Source: Bacillaceae bacterium
Lineage (GTDB): Bacteria; Bacillota; Bacilli; JACDOE01
DNA: 64,000 nt
NCBI GenBank assembly: GCA_017656255.1
Contig: JACDOE010000010.1
Span: 36,400-100,399, forward strand
Reading direction: 5' to 3'
Made by a program: the position numbers and the translations under genes. Positions 23,514-46,880 of the stretch are shown piece after piece (position 1 is the stretch's first letter; each line of letters opens with the position of its first letter). Below the pieces are notes generated by a model. That model saw only the letters and a list, made by a program, of their open reading frames with translations. It was not told where the DNA came from and made no database searches.

Positions 23514-25544
23514 TCACATAAACCGTTTCATCAATTGTAACCGGTTCTTGACCCCGGTCTTTTTAAGAATGCTGCTGACATGCTTTTTCACCGTAATCTC
23601 CGTGACATGCAGCTGTTTCGCTATCTCTTTATTGGAGAGCTCCTGCAGGATCAGTTTGACAATTTCTTTTTCCCGTTCCGTCAATTGAAACTGTTCAGCC
23701 AGCTCATGCAGATTCTGATCCTCAGCAAACAGGTGGGACGTGATCTTCTTAAGATAGTGAGCCAGTTTCGGCCCGCGCAAATCCAGCACATAAGTGGGAG
23801 AGGGCTGATCAGGACCGTAGTCATAGTGAGTGGCACCATCCACCTGTTGATATCCCATTCGTTTGTTAAGTTCCTGATAAAAAGGGATCGGCGTAGATAC
23901 AATAATGCGTCCACCGGTGAGAAGAAGAGGAAAGAGGTTATACAGGAGAAACGAGCGGATATCCGCATTGGTCGGATCAAGAACATCCAGCATCCGGATA
24001 AACCACCCGGCACACCGATCTTCTCGGACCGCATATTCCTTTTCTTCATCCGGGCTTAGACGGCTAAAATACGCTCTCGAGACAGGCTCCGTTTTCAGGT
24101 GAGGCAGAGTGCGTTCATTGATGGGGACAATGATGGACAGACCCAGCGTCTCACCCTGCCTGTTTTTAACCAGTTTTGCCGAATCATACCCCATTTTTTT
24201 CACATAATCGGCACCGATTAATTCCGATTCCTTTTTGTTATGCTGGGCTGTAACATAATAATGATACATTTCATCGGTTTCCCGGTTATAAAAATGGGCA
24301 CTTGTTTCGATCGCCTGTTTTTTTCGCCTGTCAAAGTACTCTTCTATCTCGTGAAAATTGTGGGGCCCTACGTGTTCAATATACTTGTCATCATCCAGCG
24401 CCCCCTGGAAAAAGGTGGATTGAATAACCCTGTCCCCCATATGGTAAAAGAACTGGGCCACATCCCAGTAGGATACAGATTGTTCGTTAATTTTGTTGTA
24501 ATAATAAGTCATGGCTCGCTGGCGCAAAGCCTGGCACCGATCCGGATTTCGCTGTTGCAATTCAACTTTAATGGCATCACCGATCAATTCATGCAACATC
24601 CAGCCACGGCTGTTCTTTTTAATAAAGGAGAGTGAGACGAATGCTTTAAATTGAGAGGCGGAAATTTCCTGCTCCAGCAGAAATGAAAGAGAGGATTGAT
24701 CGAAGTGTCCCATGACGGCCGCCGCTTCCAGCATATCATGCCACTCCGGTTCCGATACTTCTTCCAGCCATTTGTGGGTAAGCTCCGTTAAGATATCTAT
24801 TTTTTCATCTGCTTCCGGGAGAGATGACAGATTTTCCTCCCCGGCCATCACGGCCAGCGACAGCGTGAGCGGGTGTCCCTGGCTGAACAGCCACAGATTA
24901 CGAATCGTCCTGTCTTCTTTAATGTCATAGCGATTTAAATACTGGCGGGTTTGCGAACGGGTAAACTCCTTAATCTCAAGCTTTTGGACCATCCTTCGCC
25001 ACGCCGGCGATTGCGACCAGGTTCCGGACAACGGAAACCGGCCGGCAAGGATGATCTTCACCTGCCCGGGGAGTTGTTCCAGAAAGAACTCTCGAATCCA
25101 GCGATCCATATCACCCATTTTTTCATAGGTGTCAATGGCGATAACCACCCGGTTATCCCGGACCAGCTTTTCCAGCATATTGACCACGTAGGTCAGACTA
25201 CTGGAATGGTTTGAAAGTGGCATGTTCAACTGGCTCTCCAGCGCAGCCAGCAGATTGTGGGCCAGTGTAAATGGTGAGTGCAGAAAGTCCTGGCTGTCCA
25301 GCATCAGGAAAATCACATCTTTTTCACGTTCAGCCACCCTCTGAAAGGCGTGAAGCAGATACGTCTTGCCGGTTCCACCGGTTCCGTACAGATTGAGAAC
25401 ACGTGGGGTTTCTTCACGTTGTTGAAGAAAACGGCGAAATACATCCAATTCTTTTTCCCGTCCGACAAAGAAATGCTCTTCCATCCTGCTTACAGCCGAA
25501 CCCATTTTTCCCACTTGCTTGTTCGGCTCTTTAGAAACTTCCAT
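23514..25544 (-). CDS. LuxR-family transcriptional regulator with N-terminal STAND/AAA ATPase (MalT-like)
   Basis: 676 aa with Walker A 'LYGTGGTGKTYLL' and a C-terminal LuxR HTH 'LTEREKEIVKLILQELSNKEIAKQLHVTEITVKKHVSSILKK'. Confidence 0.8.
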   Translation of the reverse strand: MEVSKEPNKQVGKMGSAVSRMEEHFFVGREKELDVFRRFLQQREETPRVLNLYGTGGTGKTYLLHAFQRVAEREKDVIFLMLDSQDFLHSPFTLAHNLLAALESQLNMPLSNHSSSLTYVVNMLEKLVRDNRVVIAIDTYEKMGDMDRWIREFFLEQLPGQVKIILAGRFPLSGTWSQSPAWRRMVQKLEIKEFTRSQTRQYLNRYDIKEDRTIRNLWLFSQGHPLTLSLAVMAGEENLSSLPEADEKIDILTELTHKWLEEVSEPEWHDMLEAAAVMGHFDQSSLSFLLEQEISASQFKAFVSLSFIKKNSRGWMLHELIGDAIKVELQQRNPDRCQALRQRAMTYYYNKINEQSVSYWDVAQFFYHMGDRVIQSTFFQGALDDDKYIEHVGPHNFHEIEEYFDRRKKQAIETSAHFYNRETDEMYHYYVTAQHNKKESELIGADYVKKMGYDSAKLVKNRQGETLGLSIIVPINERTLPHLKTEPVSRAYFSRLSPDEEKEYAVREDRCAGWFIRMLDVLDPTNADIRSFLLYNLFPLLLTGGRIIVSTPIPFYQELNKRMGYQQVDGATHYDYGPDQPSPTYVLDLRGPKLAHYLKKITSHLFAEDQNLHELAEQFQLTEREKEIVKLILQELSNKEIAKQLHVTEITVKKHVSSILKKTGVKNRLQLMKRFM

Positions 25545-25659: not shown

Positions 25660-26781
25660 TTAATCGGTTATACGGCTGTGACGTTTTTGAAAATCCACAC
25701 CCGGATAATATACATTTTTAACCAGAAGATTGGGGCCCAGACACTTGACTTCCGGGCAATGACAACTGAGACTCCCTGCTGTTTCAGATGCGACCCATTT
25801 TTGATAGGCCTCATGTAACGTATCCTGTTGAATGTGTCCCAGCGGGGGTTCATCACCGAAGTCCGTCACGATGATCTCACCGGTGAAAATATTGACATTT
25901 AGCCGAGAACGTCCGTCGGGATCATTGCGAACGGTGACGTTTTTTTCCTGGTGGAGTCGTTTTAACAGGTGCAGGTCTTGTTCACGGTCACTGCACGCAA
26001 AAAAGGGCAATGTTCCGAACAGTAGCCAGATGTCCGGGTGACGGTGATCCAGCAGTGTATGGATCGCCTGCCTGATTTCATCGAGAGAAAGAGTGTCCAG
26101 GTTACCGGCAAAATCGCTGGGATACATCGGATGGACCTCATGCCTCCTGCAACCCATTTCGGCGATCTGGTGATGGATCTCTTTTAAATAGGGAACCGTT
26201 CGCTTATTTAACATGGTCTCCGCCGAAATGAACACACCTGCATCCGCCAATACCTTCGCATTCTTGATCATGCGCTCAAAATAGGCGACGCGCTGCTGAT
26301 AGGACGGCTTTCGTTCCATCATGGCGAACCCGAATTCAGCAAACTCTGCTTCGGTTCCCCAGTTGTGTGAAATATGCAGCACATCCAGATACGGGATAAT
26401 CTTCTCGTAACGTTTCAGGTCCAGCGTCAGATTGGAATTGATCTGGGTACGGACACCCCGCTCGCGAGCATATTTTAACAGCGGCACCACGTATTCTTCC
26501 ACGGATTTCATGGATAGCATGGGTTCACCGCCGGTGATGCTTAAAGCCCTTAACTTCGGTACTTCTTCCAGGCGTTGAATCAAGAGATCAAGTGGAAGAG
26601 CCTCCGGATCTCTGCTCTGCAGGGTTTCACCCACGGCGCAGTGCCCGCACCGCATATTGCACAGGGTCGTCGTAGTAAATTCGACATTGGTTAATTGAAG
26701 TTGACCGTATTGTTCGACATCCAGATACGCTTCCCACGGATCAAAAGAAGGGGAAATGTGCTGTTGTTTTATTGTATTCAT
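25660..26781 (-). CDS. radical SAM / CxCxxxxC-motif protein (YfkAB-like)
   Basis: Contains the 'CNMRCGHCAVG' CxxxCxxC cluster and a C-terminal 'SCHCPEVKC' (CxCxxxxC) motif. Confidence 0.7.
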   Translation of the reverse strand: MNTIKQQHISPSFDPWEAYLDVEQYGQLQLTNVEFTTTTLCNMRCGHCAVGETLQSRDPEALPLDLLIQRLEEVPKLRALSITGGEPMLSMKSVEEYVVPLLKYARERGVRTQINSNLTLDLKRYEKIIPYLDVLHISHNWGTEAEFAEFGFAMMERKPSYQQRVAYFERMIKNAKVLADAGVFISAETMLNKRTVPYLKEIHHQIAEMGCRRHEVHPMYPSDFAGNLDTLSLDEIRQAIHTLLDHRHPDIWLLFGTLPFFACSDREQDLHLLKRLHQEKNVTVRNDPDGRSRLNVNIFTGEIIVTDFGDEPPLGHIQQDTLHEAYQKWVASETAGSLSCHCPEVKCLGPNLLVKNVYYPGVDFQKRHSRITD

Positions 26782-30035: not shown

Positions 30036-30297
30036 CGTATTCTTTCCCTCCCGAAAATGACTCACTTACCAAAATCACGAAACCCTTCCCGTCCATTTTG
30101 TCAAACCATTACCGTTCAATTATTTCCCTGTATTTTTCATTATATATTCAGATTTACTCAATAGCCATAAAAAGTGAAAACACGGCTGTTATAAAAACTT
30201 AAAACCTGCCAATCAATCTGATTGCGATTAAGAGGATTTTGCGACAAAAAATAGAAAGTAGTAAAAAAGAACGATTTTGGTCGAAAGGATTGGAACA

Positions 30298-32463
30298 ATG
30301 TCGGAAAACACGAACGAAGCTATCTTTTCTCTCGATATCGGAACCAGAAGTGTTGTCGGATTGATTCTGGAACCGGAGGACAACGGAAAAATGAAAGTGG
30401 CCGGATGTGAAGTGGTCGAACATGAGGACCGCTCCATGCTGGATGGACAGATTCACGACGTCGTCGCCGTATCTAAAGTCATTCGGCAGGTCAAGGAAAA
30501 ACTGGAGAAAAACCACGGCCCTCTTCACAAAGTAGCGGTGGCGGCAGCCGGGCGCTCCCTGAAAACCATCCGGGCCTCGGTGGAAAAAGAAATTAACGGC
30601 ATGCCGATACTAACCCGGGATGACATCCTTGCCCTGGAACTATCGGCGGTCCAGGATGCTCAGAAACAGCTGGCTGCAGAACAGGATACCCACGACCAGC
30701 ACGAATACTACTGCGTCGGCTACAGTGTGGTTCATTACTATCTGGATCATGAGGTTATCGGGAACTTAATCGATCAACGCGGCGAAACGGCAAGCGTCGA
30801 AGTCATCGCTACCTTTTTGCCCCGGGTGGTGGTCGATTCTTTGCTCGCTGCCCTGAAACGGGCCGATCTGGAAATGAACGCTCTGACTCTGGAACCGATC
30901 GCGGCCATCAATGTCCTCATCCCCTCCACCATGCGTAAATTAAATATTGCGCTGGTGGACATCGGGGCCGGCACCTCCGACATTGCCATCGCGGAACACG
31001 GCACGATTACCGCCTATGGCATGGTTCCCAGTGCCGGCGATGAAATTACAGAGGCACTCAGTGAAGCGCTGCTGCTCGACTTCACGATGGCGGAACAGCT
31101 GAAGCGGAACCTGAATGATCCGAAGCAGGAAGAATATAAAGTCACCGACATCCTCGGCTTCGAACAAACGATGAGCAAGACGGACATTCTGGATCAAATC
31201 GACGAACCGATCGACCGTCTGGCCCAATTAATCAGTGATAAAATCCTGGAATTGAACGGCAGGGCGCCCCAGGCCGTCATGTTGATCGGAGGCGGAAGCC
31301 AGATTCCCCGGCTGACAGATAAAATCGCGAAAAAAACGGGACTCTCACCGAACCGGGTGGCGGTGCGCGGTGCCGATGCCCTGCAGAATACCATTCACAA
31401 ACACCGGAAAATCAAAGGGCCTGAATTTGTCACACCGGTTGGTATCGCCGTGGCAGCGACGCTTCATCCGGTCAAATATTTGACAGTCACGGTCAATGAC
31501 AATATTCTGCGTATTTTTGACCTGAAAGAACTGACCATCGGCGATGCCCTGCTGCATGAAGGCATTGATATCAAAAAACTGCACGGACGTCCGGGATTGG
31601 CTGTAACAATCCAGGTCAACGGCAAACTTAAATTTATTCCCGGCGGGCACGGTACGCCCCCGTCCATTCTTTTGAACGGTGAACCTGCCCATCTGGATAC
31701 GCCCATTTCCGAAGGGGACAGTATCACGGTCATCAAGGGCGAAGATGGTGCGGACGCCAGCGCCAGCGTCAAGGATGTGATCGATGAATTGACGACACTC
31801 GATATCACCATCGACGGCCGTCCCTATTCCCTGGCACCTCTCATTCGGGTCAACGGGGAACCGGCCACACTGGAAACTTCACTGACAGACCGGGACGAAC
31901 TGGATATCCACCTCCCTTCCACGCTGGAAGAAGTAGTGGATGAATCGGAGCTTCTGAGCTGGGATGATATTATTGCCAGCTACACGTACCGTTTAAACGG
32001 ATCAGAAAAACAGTTGAAATGGCAAAAGGCCACGATCTATGTGAACGGAAGAAAAGCCGGACGCAAAACACCGGTCAAAACCGGTGACCGGATTACGATT
32101 GAACCGCAACCATCTGGTCAGCCGTTATTGAAAGATGTGATCCCGGCGGACCAACTTTCCGGGATGATGACACCGGTCACTTTTAACGGTGAAAAGGTGA
32201 ACATCCACGACCTGCAGTACAGCATCATCATGAACGGTGAGAAGGTCTCTCCTGATGAGCCGCTGGTTGACGGGGCGACGATCCGGATTGAACGTCATGA
32301 AGACCAGGGGCTCATTTTCAGCGATGTTTTCCGTTACGTTGAAGTGGATACCGGGCAACCGCCCGGCAAAAAAAAGCTGGTGATTCTCGTCAACGGGGAA
32401 CCCGCTGATTTAAACACCCCGATCAAGGCCGGCGATCATCTGGAAATGAGATGGGAAGCCTGA
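30298..32463 (+). CDS. FtsA/PilM-like actin-fold ATPase fused to tandem ThiS-like repeats
   Basis: The N-terminus has 'IFSLDIGTRSVVGLI', 'ALVDIGAGTSDIAI' and 'MLIGGGSQIP' (actin/HSP70-fold phosphate motifs). The C-terminal 330 aa or so hold five or more repeats of 'VNGEPxxLxTPIxxGDxIxI'. Confidence 0.65.
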   Translation: MSENTNEAIFSLDIGTRSVVGLILEPEDNGKMKVAGCEVVEHEDRSMLDGQIHDVVAVSKVIRQVKEKLEKNHGPLHKVAVAAAGRSLKTIRASVEKEINGMPILTRDDILALELSAVQDAQKQLAAEQDTHDQHEYYCVGYSVVHYYLDHEVIGNLIDQRGETASVEVIATFLPRVVVDSLLAALKRADLEMNALTLEPIAAINVLIPSTMRKLNIALVDIGAGTSDIAIAEHGTITAYGMVPSAGDEITEALSEALLLDFTMAEQLKRNLNDPKQEEYKVTDILGFEQTMSKTDILDQIDEPIDRLAQLISDKILELNGRAPQAVMLIGGGSQIPRLTDKIAKKTGLSPNRVAVRGADALQNTIHKHRKIKGPEFVTPVGIAVAATLHPVKYLTVTVNDNILRIFDLKELTIGDALLHEGIDIKKLHGRPGLAVTIQVNGKLKFIPGGHGTPPSILLNGEPAHLDTPISEGDSITVIKGEDGADASASVKDVIDELTTLDITIDGRPYSLAPLIRVNGEPATLETSLTDRDELDIHLPSTLEEVVDESELLSWDDIIASYTYRLNGSEKQLKWQKATIYVNGRKAGRKTPVKTGDRITIEPQPSGQPLLKDVIPADQLSGMMTPVTFNGEKVNIHDLQYSIIMNGEKVSPDEPLVDGATIRIERHEDQGLIFSDVFRYVEVDTGQPPGKKKLVILVNGEPADLNTPIKAGDHLEMRWEA

Positions 32464-32556
32464 ACCGGATAATATGATGACCCCAAATCGCATACAAATG
32501 AAAAAACATCCCGATCCACCTGTATGGAACGGGGTGTTTTGTTTGTCGGCTACTAT

Positions 32557-32813: not shown

Positions 32814-33209
32814 TCAGATTTCGATATCTTCCGGTGGCCGGTCAGACAGATACAACAAATGGCTTACACACCGGCAATCTGAAGAGCCAAATCCCCTTGC
32901 CGGCATACTCGCCCTATTTTCGTTCTTCACATGTTCACACAGGCTGCATTCTGTCCACACGTCTCCGGAAAACGTCTCCACCCGGACAATGTCCGCATGC
33001 GGTCGCAGATAATCCATGTGCCATCGCTTCTTTTTCTCTCTCTTTAGATGGCGTTCAATTCTCGCTTTAATATGCTTACGGGCACTTCCGATATAAGCAT
33101 AGAATCCGGGCGGAAAATGAAAGCTTCCCAGTTTGCCGATTTGTAGCGTTTGATCCTGTGCCACATAAAGATGCAGGACATACAACTGATGTTCCGTGTT
33201 AATATCCAT
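32814..33209 (-). CDS. GIY-YIG superfamily DUF123-like endonuclease
   Basis: Contains 'YVLHLYV...LGSFHFPPGFYAYIGSARKHIKARIERHL...KRWHMDYL', typical of the DUF123/Uri-like family. The start is uncertain (33209 or 33242). Confidence 0.6.
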   Translation of the reverse strand: MDINTEHQLYVLHLYVAQDQTLQIGKLGSFHFPPGFYAYIGSARKHIKARIERHLKREKKKRWHMDYLRPHADIVRVETFSGDVWTECSLCEHVKNENRASMPARGFGSSDCRCVSHLLYLSDRPPEDIEI

Positions 33210-33428
33210 TCCAGAACGTACTCCTTTATACCTTCCGTTCATATTATATTAACATTGAGATCTTGAGTTGAACACCATCGCTATTATGGCATCCTTTTAA
33301 TAGGTATGAATCAAAATAAAAAAATCGTATTAAAAGACAATGTTTCAGGTGTCATCCTTTTTTTATTATAAAGAAGTTTCCCTGGTTGCGACCTGATCAT
33401 CCATATTAAAATGAACCCGAGCGAAAAC

Positions 33429-33504: not shown

Positions 33505-34398
33505 TTATCCTCTCGGCCCCGCCTGTTCTTCCCTGTTTTTCACCATGTTCATCCAGCGGTTATTGACACATTTTTTCTTGAATAGATTCCATTTATGGCG
33601 AATTTGATATCGCTGATTGATGCGTGTTGCAACACCCTGTTCCGGAAGTGGATACGGATCTTCAATCCCGGTCACAAATAGACTCACTTTAAAGCGTTGG
33701 CCGGGTTCATCCATCGAATAGGTGCCCATCTTCAGAATGTCCGCTTTGTGAAACAGGTCATTAAGACGGAGCGTCATGTGGCGAAAGGTATTCATGTCCA
33801 CCTCACGCGCATACCCGATATTGACGATCATATTGCGCCCTTCCGCATAATCCGGGGCCAGGTAAGGTGCCGATATGGCATACTTTAAAGGTTCATTGAA
33901 AGAGTCGCCTTCGATCGTCCGGATAAAAACCGGACCGTCATCTCCTTTCAACAGCGTTTTGATATCATGGACATCGATATTGATTTCACCGGATAAACGA
34001 ACCATCTCCTCTACAATTCGCACCGGGGCTTCTTCAAGGGATTCAATGGTCTCCTGGGCCTGCTTGTACGGCACCTCCGGGTCCATCAATTCCATCATCC
34101 CGTCACTGTCAAAATAAGTGACCGCGTCGCAGATTCCCTTCATCTGGTGGTACTGCATCACAGCCGTTTCAAGTCGCTTTTTTCCTTCAAACTTGAACGG
34201 AAACCGAAAGATGCCGATCAAAAAACCCTGCGTCTCTTTCAAACGGTACAAACTTTCCACCATCTCCTCCGTTTCACCCGGATTGCCGCCACGAAACCGG
34301 AAAAAACAGATGTCATCCGGTTCTATCTGAGAGACCTGCGACATATCCTTGTTACCCACAGACTGTTTAAAAATAAAGATGCTGACCTCTTGACCCAT
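33505..34398 (-). CDS. FtsZ-derived protein lacking the N-terminal GTP-binding loops
   Basis: 'IGIFRFPFKFEGKKRLETAVMQYHQMKGICDAV' and 'INIDVHDIKTLLKGDDGPVFI...NMIVNIGYAREVDM...KVSLFVTGI' are co-linear with the FtsZ core. No GGGTGTG/T4-type loop is present. The ATG at 34398 follows AAGGGGGA. Confidence 0.6.
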   Translation of the reverse strand: MGQEVSIFIFKQSVGNKDMSQVSQIEPDDICFFRFRGGNPGETEEMVESLYRLKETQGFLIGIFRFPFKFEGKKRLETAVMQYHQMKGICDAVTYFDSDGMMELMDPEVPYKQAQETIESLEEAPVRIVEEMVRLSGEINIDVHDIKTLLKGDDGPVFIRTIEGDSFNEPLKYAISAPYLAPDYAEGRNMIVNIGYAREVDMNTFRHMTLRLNDLFHKADILKMGTYSMDEPGQRFKVSLFVTGIEDPYPLPEQGVATRINQRYQIRHKWNLFKKKCVNNRWMNMVKNREEQAGPRG

Positions 34399-34565
34399 AG
34401 CCTGTCCCCCTTGCTTTTTATTCATTATATACGGAACAGGACGTAAAGAATGTCATCCCGGGTCGATGGCGGGGTTCTAGTTTTGCAGAATTTTGATGAA
34501 ACTGATTGTAATTCCTGATATACTCTAGTAACGAATAGATAATGACATAAATTGGAGGCATTGAC

Positions 34566-37296: not shown

Positions 37297-39033
37297 TTAC
37301 ATTTTGAATCGGGACAGGGACTGATTCAATTCTTCCGCCATCTGGGCCAGGTTCTCGGCCATGCTGTTGATCTCCTGCATGGACGCGTTCTGCTGTTCCA
37401 TCGAGGCAGACAGTTCTTCCGTTCCCGCGGATGATTCTTCCGTCACGGCAGCGATGTCTTCCACCGCTTTCACACCCTGTTCCACTCTTCCCGTAATCTG
37501 TTCCGTTGCCATCGACACCTGCTGGATCTTGCCGCCCATCTCCTGGATGATTGCCGCAATCTCTTCGAAGGTCTTGCCGTTGGTTTCGATTACTTCCGAA
37601 CCTTCTTTGACCTGATCCACCGCTTCCTGCATCACCGTACCGGCTTCTTCTGCTTCCTTCAGCACCGAATGAACGATATCGGCGATCTCATTGGTAGATT
37701 TACCCGCCTGTTCTGCCAGTTTCCGTACTTCATCAGCCACCACGGCAAACCCTCTTCCCTGTTCACCGGCACGGGCTGCTTCAATCGCTGCATTCAGTGC
37801 CAGCAGGTTGGTCTGCTCGGCTATTTCATTGATCACTTTCAAGATTTCACTGATCTCTTTCGACTTTTCACTCAGCGTAAACACCACATTGGCCGATTGT
37901 GACACTTTCTGTTCGATGATTTGCATCTGTTCGATGGACTGATGGGCACTTTCCGCTCCCTGCCTGGATGCTTCATCTCCCCGGCGGGAACTTTCTTCCA
38001 TCTCCGTGGCACTGGCATTAATCTGTTTGATCTCTTCGTCGATCTGCTGCATGATCTCCAGCGCACTGCCTGCCTGCTCCGCCTGTGTGGTAGCACCTGC
38101 CGCCAGTTCTTCGGTGGTGGCAGATACCTGTTCGATTCCCTGGGTGATCTGGTTGGACGAAGCCGTCAGTTCCTCACTGGAGCCCGTCACCTTCTCAGAA
38201 ATGGTGCTGGCATCCTTGATCAGGGATCTCAGGTTATCCACCATGGCGTTCATGGCCTCGGACAGCTGACCGATCTCATCTTTCGAACGCACTTTCATCT
38301 GCGAAATCGCCAGGTTACCGTCCGCCAGCTGTTTCATTTTCTCCGTAATCTGTACGATCGGCGTACCCATGCGTCCGGCAAACATATAAATCACCACGAT
38401 ACCCACCACCAGTGCAATACCGAGGGTCAGCATCAACACCTGCAGAATACGGGTCGCTCCGCTGTTATAGTCCTCCATGTAAGAACCGGCACTGATCACC
38501 CATCCCCAGTGAGGGTCCAGTTCGCTGTAAGAAATTTTCGGCGCCAGTTTATCGGGGTTATCGGGAAGCGGCCACTCGTAATAGGTGAAACCTCCGCCTT
38601 CCTGAGCCTTTTTAATAAAATCACGAATAAAATAAAAACCGTTTTGTGTCTGGAAATCCCACATGTTTTTCCCTTCTACTGCGGGATGAGCCAGGGTATT
38701 CCCTTTTTGATCCACAACGGTAAAGTACCCGCGGGCCCCCAGATCGATCGTCTTATCGACCGGGCGCTTGCCCTCACTGTTTTTTTCACCGAGAATCTGT
38801 ACTTTGACCCGCTCCTGAGCTTCTTCGAGGGTCAGGGTTCCTTTCTGTACTTCCTCATCCAGCGTGGCAATCATTTTTTTAACCATCCGTACATTATTCT
38901 GGAGTCCCGTCGCTCCGGCATCATTCAGCTCATTCTCGGCGATCTGATAGGCTATCACGCCGATGATGAGACCGGGTATCACCAGTAAAGCAAGGCTGAT
39001 CAAAATAAGTTTCGCTTTAATGTTAAGTTTCAT
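37297..39033 (-). CDS. methyl-accepting chemotaxis protein (dCache-type sensor, HAMP, MA domain), paralog 1
   Basis: 578 aa with an N-terminal TM helix, a periplasmic Cache-like region, a second TM helix, a HAMP domain and the highly conserved signalling hairpin '[40 protein letters not shown]'. Confidence 0.9.
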
Positions 39034-39479: not shown

Positions 39480-41219
39480 TTACATTTTGAATCGGGACAG
39501 GGATTGATTCAATTCTTCCGCCATCTGGGCCAGGTTCTCGGCCATGCTGTTGATCTCCTGCATGGACGCGTTCTGCTGTTCCATCGAGGCAGACAGTTCT
39601 TCCGTTCCCGCGGATGATTCTTCCGTCACGGCAGCGATGTCTTCCACCGCTTTCACACCCTGTTCCACTCTTCCCGTAATCTGTTCCGTTGCCATCGACA
39701 CCTGCTGGATCTTGCCGCCCATCTCCTGGATGATTGCCGCAATCTCTTCGAAGGTCTTGCCGTTGGTTTCGATTACTTCCGAACCTTCTTTGACCTGATC
39801 CACCGCTTCCTGCATCACCGTACCGGCTTCTTCTGCTTCCTTCAGCACCGAATGAACGATATCGGCGATCTCATTGGTAGATTTACCCGCCTGTTCTGCC
39901 AGTTTCCGTACTTCATCAGCCACCACGGCAAACCCTCTTCCCTGTTCACCGGCACGGGCTGCTTCAATCGCTGCATTCAGTGCCAGCAGGTTGGTCTGCT
40001 CGGCTATTTCATTGATCACTTTCAAGATTTCACTGATCTCTTTCGACTTTTCACTCAGCGTAAACACCACATTGGCCGATTGTGACACTTTCTGTTCGAT
40101 GATTTGCATCTGTTCGATGGACTGATGGGCACTTTCCGCTCCCTGCCTGGATGCTTCATCTCCCCGGCGGGAACTTTCTTCCATCTCCGTGGCACTGGCA
40201 TTAATCTGTTTGATCTCTTCGTCGATCTGCTGCATGATCTCCAGCGCACTGCCTGCCTGCTCCGCCTGTGTGGTAGCACCTGCCGCCAGTTCTTCGGTGG
40301 TGGCAGATACCTGTTCGATTCCCTGGGTGATCTGGTTGGACGAAGCCGTCAGTTCCTCACTGGAGCCCGTCACCTTCTCAGAAATGGTGCTGGCATCCTT
40401 GATCAGGGATCTCAGGTTATCCACCATGGCGTTCATGGCCTCGGACAGCTGACCGATCTCATCTTTCGAACGCACCTTCATCTGCGAAATCGCCAGGTTA
40501 CCGTCCGCCAGCTGTTTCATTCTCTCCGTAATCTGTACGATCGGCGTACCCATGCGTCCGGCAAACAGGTAAATGGCCACGATACCTACCACCAGCGCAA
40601 TGCCGAGGGTCAGCATCAATACCTGCAGAATACGGGTTGCTCCGCTGTTATAATCTTTCATATAGGAACCGGCAGCCACTATCCAACCCCAGTGGGGATC
40701 CAGTTCCGTGTATGCAATCTTGGGCGCAAGAGAGTCCGGGTCATCCGGAAGCGGCCAGTCATAATAAGTGAATCCTCCGCCCTCCTCCGCCTTCTTTACC
40801 ATATCACGGGCAAAGTAGTATCCGTCTTCTGTTTTTGTATCCCACAAACTCTCTCCCTCAAGCAGTGGATGTGCAATAAGGACTGCTTTTCGCGACATAA
40901 CAAAATAGTAACCGTTTTCACCAATGTCAATCGTTTTATCGATCGGGCGCTTGCCCTCACTGTTCATTTCTCCCAGAATCTGTACCTTCACCCGCTCCTG
41001 GGCTTCTTCGAGGGTCAGGGTTCCTTTCTGTACTTCCTCATCCAGGGCGGCAATCATCTTTTTTACCAGGCGGACATCATTTTTCAATCCCGTAGCCCCG
41101 GCGTTGTTCAATTCGTCCTTGGCAATCTGAAAGGCCGTCATCCCGATGATCAGGCCGGGGACCGCCAGCAAAGCAAGGCTGATTAAGATAAGCTTGGCTT
41201 TAATGTTGATGAGTTTCAT
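39480..41219 (-). CDS. methyl-accepting chemotaxis protein, paralog 2
   Basis: 579 aa. The C-terminal 330 aa or so match paralog 1 exactly, while the sensor domain has diverged. Confidence 0.9.
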
Positions 41220-44910: not shown

Positions 44911-45699
44911 CTATTTCTGAAGGGGGCGCAGGACCGGTTGTTCCTTATCGGCATTACTCACAAATTTGTAGATTGAGATTTCAACACGGCGATTCAGCGC
45001 TCTTCCCTCTTTCGTTTCATTGGTTGCAATCGGACGGAATTCCCCGTAGCCTTCTGCATGAAACCGGCCGGGATTTAACTGATCATTTTGCAACAGGATT
45101 TTCATAAAATTGAGTGCCCGTTCGGTGCTGAGATCCCAGTTGGATTCAAACTGAGCAGTACGAATGGGACGATTGTCCGTATGACCGGCCACCACCACTT
45201 CATAGCCCGGATATTCAACCAGCATTTCCGAAAGGGCGACGCCGAGTTGTCTGGCTCCGGGATTGACCTCGGCACTTCCCGAGTCAAACAGGGCATGGTC
45301 GCGAATGGTGATCATCAGCAGGTTTTTGTTCAGGCTCGTTTCAATTTCCGATTCCAGATGATTCTCTTGAATGTAGCGATCAACCCTTTTTTTCAATTCT
45401 TCCAGATTTTTTAATTCCGCCCCGATGTTTTTATCCGTATCGGAACCCCGGTGTTCCGTCGACTCCGTCGGTTGATCCACTTCAAGCGGAAAGGCACTGG
45501 TATACTCCAAAATGCCTGAACCACTATGGAAGGCAGAATTCATGGCCAGTATCAACCGGTCATATTTCTTCTGATCAATGTTACTGACAGCAAAGAGAAC
45601 AATGAACAGAGCCAGCAGCAGGGTCAGCAGATCGGCATATGGAATAAGCCAGGTTTCATCAATATGCTCTTCCTCATGCTGTTTGCGCTTCTTCGGCAT
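44911..45699 (-). CDS. motB: flagellar motor stator protein MotB (OmpA-like C-terminal domain)
   Basis: Contains the N-terminal 'WLIPYADLLTLLLALFIVLFA' with the conserved Asp, and the C-terminal 'VVAGHTDNRPI...FESNWDLSTERA...NRRVEI'. Confidence 0.88.
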   Translation of the reverse strand: MPKKRKQHEEEHIDETWLIPYADLLTLLLALFIVLFAVSNIDQKKYDRLILAMNSAFHSGSGILEYTSAFPLEVDQPTESTEHRGSDTDKNIGAELKNLEELKKRVDRYIQENHLESEIETSLNKNLLMITIRDHALFDSGSAEVNPGARQLGVALSEMLVEYPGYEVVVAGHTDNRPIRTAQFESNWDLSTERALNFMKILLQNDQLNPGRFHAEGYGEFRPIATNETKEGRALNRRVEISIYKFVSNADKEQPVLRPLQK

Positions 45700-46498
45700 T
45701 TGCCGGATCCTCCTGTTGAGTGCCTGTATCCTCCTGCACCTGTTTCAATTCGGAGCTAGAAACAAATACAGACAATTTTTGTTCAATATTCGTTGGCGAC
45801 ATCCCCAGTTGGATGGACAACAATCCTTCCACCATCAACAGTTTGGTTTCAACTTCCTGTCTGGACAAACGTTTAAGTTTGTTGGCAATGGGATGCCACA
45901 GGACATATCCGGTAAAAATACCGAGGAGCGTTGCGACAAACGCGGCAGCAATCGAATGCCCGAGGACTTCAATGTCATCCAGATTTCCCAGGGCAGCAAT
46001 CAGGCCGACAACAGCCCCAAGTACCCCCAGTGTCGGTGCATATGTACCAGCCTGTGTAAAAATCAGGGCTCCAGCTTTATGTCTCTCTTCGATGGCTTCG
46101 ATCTTTTCCAGCAACACATCGCGGACAAAGTCGTTTTCACTTCCGTCAATAATCATCATCAGCCCGTCTTTTAAAAAGGGATCGTCCAGATCTTCCACTT
46201 TGTTTTCCAGGGATAAAAGGCCTTCGCGTCTGGCATGTCCGGCCAGGTCGACAAATAATTTGATCAATTCCGGTTTGGAGGGAATATCCGGTTTCTTAAA
46301 CACAATTTTGATCAATTTGGGGAATTTTTTTAATTCTTCCAGCGGAAAACCGATAAACAGAGAAGCAGCTGTTCCGACGATAATAATTAAAAATGCAGCC
46401 GGGTTAATCAGTGCGGCGAGGGAGGCGCCTTTTAACACCATTCCCAGTCCCACTGCAATAAGTCCCAGTGTAATCCCGATCCATGTTGATCTTTCCAT
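45674..46498 (-). CDS. motA: flagellar motor stator protein MotA (MotA/TolQ/ExbB channel family)
   Basis: Four TM helices with 'GTYAPTLGVLGAVVGLI' and 'AAAFVATLLGIFTGYVLWHPIANKL'. The ATG at 46498 follows AAGGGAG. It overlaps motB. Confidence 0.88.
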   Translation of the reverse strand: MERSTWIGITLGLIAVGLGMVLKGASLAALINPAAFLIIIVGTAASLFIGFPLEELKKFPKLIKIVFKKPDIPSKPELIKLFVDLAGHARREGLLSLENKVEDLDDPFLKDGLMMIIDGSENDFVRDVLLEKIEAIEERHKAGALIFTQAGTYAPTLGVLGAVVGLIAALGNLDDIEVLGHSIAAAFVATLLGIFTGYVLWHPIANKLKRLSRQEVETKLLMVEGLLSIQLGMSPTNIEQKLSVFVSSSELKQVQEDTGTQQEDPANAEEAQTA

Positions 46499-46880
46499 GA
46501 TTGCCACTCCCTTTCGGTCCATGGTCCTTGTTGCGTTCTACATGTTTCGATTTATTTTTTAAGATTATATCATTAATTGGTCAAAACTACCAAGTTTTTT
46601 TACATATCATGACACTGCATTTAATTTTATGTAATAAATTGTCGTATAGATAAATGTTATCCATTTATAGAAAAAGGTCACCGGGGTTCAATGGTTGTCG
46701 TGGAAGGCAGAGTTCGACCGAAGGAGTGTCTCCGAATTAAAAGGGGGACCCGTCCTGGAGAATTTCTCTGTTATACGCCGATTTAGACTCGAATATGAGG
46801 CGACGGGTTGAGAGCTGATCTTCCGTTTTCCGGAACACCTGACGACTGTTTCTGTCACATCTTCACCCATCCCCTGTAAA

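Follow-up and report, generated by a model that had tools for sequence, protein, structure and literature searches.

FtsA (TIGR01174; PDB 3wqt, 7q6d, and 1e4f) is an ATPase with an actin fold, an SHS2/1C subdomain, and intact ATP-binding motifs. It shares these features with a 721-residue protein encoded in the window, the whole 64,000-nucleotide stretch of Bacillaceae contig JACDOE010000010.1 that was analyzed. Identity between the two is approximately 15-21%, and the 721-residue protein scores below the FtsA equivalog cut-offs (96.7 bits versus 175.85 for TIGR01174 and 46.5 versus 409 for PRK09472). Whereas FtsA has a C-terminal membrane-targeting helix, this protein instead ends in a 330-residue β-grasp tail, and whereas the FtsA gene adjoins ftsZ in the dcw cluster, genes of this family lie between aroA and ytxJ in Bacillales and in che operons elsewhere. 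The protein was rejected as FtsA proper on its sub-cut-off score, the lack of a C-terminal amphipathic helix, and its location outside the division cluster. It is a paralog distinct from divisome FtsA and belongs to a widespread, uncharacterized family.

PilM (TIGR01175; PDB 2ych and 5eou) has the FtsA-type fold in common with the 721-residue protein, which differs by its extra tail. PilM proper was rejected as an identity because the protein scores 67.8 bits against a cut-off of 133 and because the pilN/pilO/pilP/pilQ cluster does not recur among 171 loci.

ThiS, MoaD, SAMP1, and Mth1743 are small sulfur carriers or modifiers that share the β-grasp fold with the units of the tail. Unlike these proteins, the tail units are internal, occur in five copies, and have no Gly-Gly end. 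Canonical ThiS follows the order strand 1-strand 2-helix-strands 3, 4, and 5, while the hairpins of the tail units appear displaced in sequence.

Bub-type multi-ubiquitin proteins (PDB 9cd2, 8u38, 9d5b, and 9d59) are bacterial chains that, like the tail, contain several β-grasp domains. They are its best Foldseek match (E 1e-5), although identity to the tail is only 8-20%, and the titles of their PDB entries indicate that some form filaments. These proteins are encoded with E1, E2, and JAB enzymes (Iyer et al., 2006). They have no ATPase domain, whereas the 721-residue protein has one and has no E1, E2, or JAB neighbors. The HUBL tail of USP7 (PDB 2ylm and 4wph, also found with Foldseek) resembles the layout described here in that five non-conjugatable UBL domains, with regulatory and partner-binding functions, come after an enzyme. 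USP7 itself is a deubiquitinase of eukaryotes whose catalytic domain is unrelated, and the likeness is one of analogy only.

ParC and PpfA are ParA-type ATPases that are encoded in che clusters and position chemoreceptor arrays. The presence of a cytoskeletal-type ATPase gene inside chemotaxis operons is the functional analogy behind the role proposed below. Their ParA/MinD P-loop fold is wholly unlike that of the actin-like 721-residue protein, for which array positioning is proposed by analogy.

Gene and ATPase Domain

The gene occupies positions 30298-32463 of the plus strand and is complete, with an uninterrupted reading frame of 721 codons and a stop codon. The NCBI call of the identical protein (P0001), labeled ‘cell division protein FtsA’ and derived from a ‘Bacillaceae bacterium’ MAG, has the same ATG start and the same length. 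A ribosome-binding site, GAAAGGA, can be read from the sequence at 30283-30289 (plus strand), 8 nt 5′ of the ATG at 30298, and a promoter scan found no convincing sigma-70 promoter upstream of the gene. A weak terminator-like stem-loop with a T-rich tail lies at 32519-32543 on the plus strand, 56 nt 3′ of the stop codon; its assignment is uncertain, since the terminator-like sites in the scan were no more common than in shuffled sequence.

The FtsA/PilM-type actin-fold ATPase comprises residues 1-389 (30298-31464, plus strand), with the SHS2/1C subdomain inserted at about residues 89-175. The original prediction that actin-fold motifs occupy the first 390 residues or so agrees with the phosphate-1 motif DIGT (residues 13-16), the LTLEPIAA motif (residues 196-203), the phosphate-2 motif DIGAGTSD (residues 221-228), and the adenosine motif GGGS (residues 331-334). 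It agrees as well with Pfam matches to FtsA (PF14450, residues 218-382, E 8e-14) and PilM_2 (residues 12-384). In 425 full-length homologs, the ATP-site signatures DIGT, LTLEP(IAA), DIGAGTSD, AGDE, and GGGS are 97-100% conserved, and a family-specific motif, EH..R.M.DGQIH, is conserved just as strongly. Because the signature motifs are conserved, the domain is predicted to bind ATP. It probably hydrolyzes ATP as well and, by analogy with FtsA and PilM, probably self-associates or cycles between states.

Repeats and Ubiquitin-Like Fold of the Tail

The C-terminal region of about 330 residues contains a tandem array of the motif [VILMF]NG[EGRK]..[GR][DA]x[ILVM]x[ILVM], which occurs at residues 459, 518, 582, 645, and 698. 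When this region was shuffled 5000 times, a single occurrence arose in 1/5000 shuffles and two or more in 0/5000, and none of the other window ORFs of at least 100 residues contains the motif. Profile-profile comparison (hhalign) of the five units, with profiles built from 60 homologs, gave probabilities of 96.8-99.1% for every pair. The tandem repeat is real.

Unit 1 (residues 391-482; 31468-31743) is defined by DSSP of AF2 models, hhalign, and partial ThiS-like and ThiS Pfam matches. It consists of an N-terminal hairpin (393-408), a helix (413-428), a second hairpin (436-447), and a three-strand block (456-480) that carries LNGEPAHLDTPISEGDSITV. Units 2, 3, and 4 are each defined by AF2 DSSP, the motif, and hhalign. 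Unit 2 (residues 487-540; 31756-31917) has a short helix and a hairpin at 501-512 (ITIDGRPYSL), followed by VNGEPATLETSLTDRDELDI. Unit 3 (residues 541-605; 31918-32112), onto which positions 14-69 of the Pfam ThiS model align, has a helix at 542-558 and a long hairpin at 559-576 (YRLNGSEKQL), followed by VNGRKAGRKTPVKTGDRITI. Unit 4 (residues 608-669; 32119-32304) has a helix at 610-621 and a hairpin at 624-637 (VTFNGEKVNI), followed by MNGEKVSPDEPLVDGATIRI. Unit 5 (residues 671-721; 32308-32460), defined by AF2 DSSP, the motif, and Pfam, has no hairpin of its own; its conserved helix FSDVFRYV (674-679) is followed by VNGEPADLNTPIKAGDHLEM. All five units are encoded on the plus strand. The hairpins at 436-447, 501-512, 559-576, and 624-637, together with the N-terminal one at 393-408, account for the second xVNG/xIDG strand that had been noticed ahead of most repeats.

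The suggestion that the repeats are of the ThiS/MoaD β-grasp type has gained support from both profiles and structure prediction. The 721-residue protein matches Pfam ThiS (PF02597) with an E-value of 2e-13, although per-unit ThiS scores are sub-threshold at 16-19 bits, and weak matches to Ub-Mut7C, TGS, S4, and ThiS-like all fall on the VNGE..GDxIxI motifs. AF2 modeling from a 60-sequence alignment reached a pLDDT of 85.2 for the full-length chain and 90.5 for the tail (residues 386-721), for which it predicts a β-grasp fold. Foldseek matches the tail to multi-ubiquitin proteins at the E-value given above (PDB 9cd2; also 9d5b and 8u38). An FtsA/PilM-type actin-fold ATPase followed by five ThiS-type β-grasp domains is therefore a very likely structural identity.

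The tail is acidic throughout the family (median net charge -11, pI 5.1) and contains no hydrophobic segment. Its units end in KGEDG, HLPS, EPQPSG, ERHED, and RWEA; the last of these is the C-terminus, which has no Gly-Gly, and the final element is a β strand (714-720). A C-terminal Gly-Gly is found in 0/425 family members. The product is a soluble, acidic, cytoplasmic two-part protein. Together, the acidity, the lack of a hydrophobic segment, and the lack of Gly-Gly speak against a tail that binds RNA, anchors the protein in a membrane, carries sulfur, or is conjugated. The weak TGS and S4 matches in Pfam had raised the idea of RNA binding as in those domains, which the acidic tail makes unlikely.

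Sulfur transfer by the ThiS-like domains, or their participation in Bub-type poly-ubiquitin conjugation or defense, is largely refuted and can be regarded as very improbable. The domains are internal, and the Gly-Gly end required of a carrier or modifier is missing from the family. Genes for the E1-like ThiF and MoeB, ThiG, and MoaE are absent from the window and the related loci, as are E1, E2, and JAB neighbors from every locus examined, and no PADLOC model for a defense system matched.

A 390-residue ATPase followed by a 330-residue β-rich tail is also an Hsp70-like layout, so that by analogy the protein might be an ATP-driven chaperone or reactivase related to Hsp70 or EutJ, with the tail binding clients. 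The chance of this is slight: the SHS2/1C subdomain is a hallmark of FtsA and PilM rather than of Hsp70, the tail is β-grasp instead of the Hsp70 substrate-binding sandwich, and neither chaperone partners (DnaJ, GrpE) nor microcompartment genes occur among the neighbors examined.

Arrangement of the Tail Domains

DSSP of the AF2 models gives the tail five each of hairpins, helices, and three-strand blocks in the order hairpin-helix, (hairpin, three-strand block, helix) x4, and a final three-strand block. A tandem array of five ThiS domains in canonical form would give (hairpin, helix, three strands) x5. The departure from canonical order implies that each three-strand block has traded position with the hairpin of the unit after it. 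The spacing between hairpin and VNGE strand is only 1-2 residues (residue 577; residues 513-514), which is too short for a turn and argues that the hairpins are common to neighboring units. Unit 5 alone consists of a helix and three strands only, which likewise argues that the hairpins are not private to one unit.

Covariation in the tail was analyzed by mean-field DCA of 423 sequences (Neff 300). The strongest hairpin couplings, 439-534, 504-598, and 629-715, exceed the 99.9th percentile, as does the first-unit coupling 398-475, and these four pairs are in the parallel register expected where strand 1 lies beside strand 5 of the unit that follows. Among the top 400 pairs, 31 link a hairpin with the next unit versus 25 with its own unit; because own-unit covariation is also present, interlocking is unproven. 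Element order and covariation thus give about an even chance that the five domains form an interlocked rod in which each hairpin also packs on the next unit. The original picture of a string of β-grasp modules stands for the β-grasp units themselves, which are probably not simple beads: a bead-on-a-string parse is the less favored one on the same two lines of evidence.

An interlocked rod would be a domain arrangement not described for the β-grasp fold. The tail may be the first case of tandem β-grasp domains that interlock, and as such would be of interest for ubiquitin-fold evolution. Between the ATPase and the tail, whole-protein covariation gives 230/600 top pairs of the N-to-C type, which is not above the expected share, and these form no coherent patch.

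Family Distribution and Annotation

At 50% identity, a tail-only search against 1.84 billion representatives yielded 745 clusters, of which 478 had E<=1e-10. Most of the listed matches have approximately 700-730 residues, with the tail occupying about 385-720, and shorter ones look like truncated or partial gene calls. Since most listed matches share both length and tail position, the tail appears mainly with this ATPase domain. The family has a fixed length of approximately 705-730 residues and at least 478 clusters at 50% identity.

Carriers were found in at least 570 GTDB species in a scan of one genome per species. The best 80 of these are all Bacillales and include Brevibacillus, Aneurinibacillus, Anoxybacillus, Peribacillus, Cytobacillus, Heyndrickxia, and Pontibacillus. 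Remoter members occur in Heliobacteriaceae and in MAGs of Goldiibacteriota, Omnitrophota, the PVC group, and Spirochaetia. The architecture had been called unusual; it is not rare, and it forms a fixed-length family in many phyla.

No NCBIfam family is above threshold for the 721-residue protein. Full-text searches, weak because ‘ThiS’ reads as ‘this’ and ‘cheC’ as ‘check’, and the Aravind-group β-grasp surveys yielded neither a fusion of an FtsA or actin fold with ThiS nor an FtsA-like protein in che operons. The domain matches are already visible in databases, and no description of the family or experiment on it was found. In hundreds of species, from Bacillales to Omnitrophota, proteins of this strictly conserved 720-residue architecture bear the label ‘cell division protein FtsA’ on sub-threshold evidence. 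This name is an over-annotation that deserves correction at a minimum.

Gene Neighborhood in Bacillales and in the Window

In 60-71/80 Bacillales loci, the position of the gene is fixed, and it is alone on its strand. On the 5′ side the order is acuABC, motPS, ccpA, and aroA (minus strand), then the family gene (plus strand); on the 3′ side it is ytxJ, ytxH, and ytxG (minus strand), an M29 aminopeptidase, murC, and sftA. The Bacillales family gene is monocistronic, with the aroA and ytxJ-ytxH-ytxG flanks on the opposite strand. The window is rearranged, and only the aminopeptidase remains of this fixed order.

A degenerate FtsZ-like protein is encoded about 1 kb from the 30298-32463 gene, as the original prediction had noted. 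Its ORF lies at 33505-34425 on the minus strand and belongs to a small Bacillales family of short, degenerate FtsZ paralogs. The functional link implied by this proximity is not supported: an FtsZ-like gene accompanies family members in 0/171 related loci, and the FtsZ-like gene of Salirhabdus has no family member nearby. For these two reasons, the FtsZ-like protein was rejected as a partner, and its proximity is incidental.

One alternative is that the protein is a second FtsA with a part in division or in septation during sporulation, perhaps alongside this FtsZ-like protein. That would fit the database name, the nearest solved structure (FtsA), the presence of murC and sftA a few kb away in Bacillales synteny, and the perfect Spo0A-box 7-mers found upstream in 17/77 orthologous loci, mostly of Brevibacillus, where such boxes are enriched. 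Such a role is distinctly improbable in light of the TIGR01174 score, the C-terminus, which is a β strand in place of an amphipathic helix, the location of the gene outside any dcw cluster, and the lack of linkage to FtsZ-like genes. The Spo0A boxes are limited to a clade, and the window carries a one-off variant, TTGCGACA, at -59. They were not taken as a clue to the family at large, since Omnitrophota and Goldiibacteriota, neither of which is known to include spore formers, have members of it too. The protein probably does not act in cell division.

Chemotaxis-Linked Loci and Proposed Function

Outside Firmicutes, the family gene directly follows cheA-cheC in 5/5 long contigs examined (L086 and L088-L091). 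The operon reads MCP-cheW-cheY-cheC-cheD-cheB-cheA-cheC and then the family gene, which is separated from cheC by a gap of 2-168 nt or overlaps it by 1-4 nt. In all, 85 loci (L081-L171) were collected from a metagenome scan and earlier look-ups, 72 of them flanked upstream by 800 nt or more. A cheA, cheB, and/or cheC cluster lies upstream on the same strand in 13/85. Several loci show rearranged linkage; with X as the family gene, these are response regulator (REC)-X-cheC-cheC-cheD-cheY in L131, cheA-GAF-X-cheC-cheD-cheY in L100, cheR-X in L135, and X-kinase-cheW in L152. The che-linked loci group into four or more sequence clusters, and their pairwise identity falls as low as 31%. In another clade, the gene for a membrane GAF-GGDEF cyclase lies directly downstream in 8 further loci, and many family members occur in unrelated contexts (MurJ, HemL, and Nth-GlgA).

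The persistence of che linkage through rearrangement points to chemosensory or motility signaling rather than division and is the sole functional clue available. No che gene is adjacent in the Bacillales loci, including the closest relatives of the window, so the chemotaxis link is transferred from proteins only 33-40% identical. Because the family is embedded in che operons in several phyla, a chemotaxis or motility role is proposed, although its assignment to this protein is rather doubtful.

Che-like systems govern type IV pili in several bacteria. The 721-residue protein could also be imagined as a PilM-like platform of a type IV or competence pilus, with the tail replacing or extending PilN binding and Che-type regulation where the genes are linked, and a pilin-type N_methyl gene does lie upstream of the che-X operon in L091. 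The TIGR01175 score lies at about half its cut-off, and a pilN/pilO/pilB-type cluster recurs nowhere among the neighbors in the 171 loci, which makes a pilus platform distinctly improbable.

The best explanation overall, to which we give slightly less than an even chance, is that the actin-fold ATPase and its non-conjugating β-grasp rod serve chemosensory or motility signaling as a scaffold or adaptor under ATP control. The actin-fold domain would bind and probably hydrolyze ATP, and it may self-associate or switch states as FtsA and PilM do. The stiff, acidic tail of five ubiquitin-fold modules would recruit partners non-covalently, by analogy with the USP7 UBL tail and the filament-forming multi-ubiquitin proteins. 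Judging from the operons in other phyla, these partners would most likely be components of the chemotaxis pathway or of its output. One possibility is that the protein organizes or positions chemoreceptor arrays or couples their output.

A more specific form of this scaffold or adaptor reading holds that the protein is an unrecognized chemosensory or motility component, a polymer or scaffold, actin-like and dependent on ATP, in which an interlocked five-domain rod binds Che proteins or receptors to organize, position, or segregate arrays. This form is unlikely; if true, it would provide an actin-fold counterpart to the ParA-type ParC/PpfA systems. If the che link reflects function, the family would represent a new kind of cytoskeletal ATPase in bacterial signaling, one amenable to testing in Bacillales that can be cultured (Brevibacillus, Anoxybacillus, and Peribacillus, for example).

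The window itself contains two MCP genes 5-9 kb downstream of the family gene and motB/motA 12 kb downstream, which may be background synteny.

Genes Flanking the FtsA-like Gene

The FtsZ-type neighbor of the FtsA-like gene is a degenerate FtsZ paralogue of 306 aa encoded on the reverse strand at 33505-34425. This ORF matches Tubulin and FtsZ_C only below threshold, scores 53.9 bits against TIGR00065 compared with a cut-off of 295, and has a degraded G-box that reads GGNPGET. The protein is part of a small family of approximately 30 clusters (242-319 aa) found only in Bacillales, including Effusibacillus, Ferviditalea, Salirhabdus, Evansella, and Ornithinibacillus, and all members are named 'FtsZ' in databases. 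Outside this window, the paralogue and the FtsA-like gene are unlinked. Between the two genes lies a reverse-strand gene for a 142-aa DUF123 protein (32814-33242; PF01986, E 5e-23) with weak similarity to GIY-YIG, and no DUF123 gene is present in any of the 171 related loci compared with the window.

Upstream of the Bacillales orthologues, the intergenic region between aroA and the orthologue contains a conserved element, TGTCACGAA ... TTAAACGCTTTTAAGCG(A)TAAAGTAT, in 42 of 77 upstream regions. The element includes the inverted repeat CGCTT/AAGCG and is located about 40-90 nt before the orthologue start (loci L021, L024, L025, L057, and L064, among others). Brevibacillus loci instead contain a perfect Spo0A-box 7-mer, TTCGACA.

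Chemotaxis, Motility, and Signaling Contexts

Two methyl-accepting chemotaxis protein genes are arranged in tandem on the reverse strand (37297-39033 and 39480-41219) with a spacing of 2183 nt. The encoded proteins have identical C-terminal halves of ~390 aa and diverged sensor domains, and this combination suggests that the pair arose through recent tandem duplication or gene conversion. The MotS/MotP-like stator genes motB and motA (44911-45699 and 45674-46522, reverse strand) are found at a distance of ~12 kb from the FtsA-like gene. The FtsA-like orthologue of most Bacillaceae has motPS 3.5-4.3 kb upstream; the closeness of the mot genes may be plain synteny.

Besides the che operons of other phyla, the FtsA-like family has a second signaling-type context. 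In one clade, the family gene is preceded by glgA-nth and followed by a gene for a membrane GAF-GGDEF diguanylate cyclase, which starts between -9 and +120 nt from the stop codon of the family gene (L109, L115, L128, L129, L160, L161, and L164, with L123 and L169 nearby).

Longer family members occur at L087, L119, L130, L140, L145, L147, L150, and L170; their lengths of 843-952 aa, versus the usual ~720, derive from our own ORF calls and possibly include upstream extensions. For one longer member, P0276, however, the database entry itself has 871 aa.

Elsewhere in the window, the reverse-strand gene at 23514-25544 encodes a STAND-type ATPase of 676 aa that carries a LuxR-type HTH at its C-terminus. 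The ATPase has weak PADLOC matches (STAND_TPR and CARF-associated HTH), and its gene adjoins a radical-SAM gene at 25660-26781.
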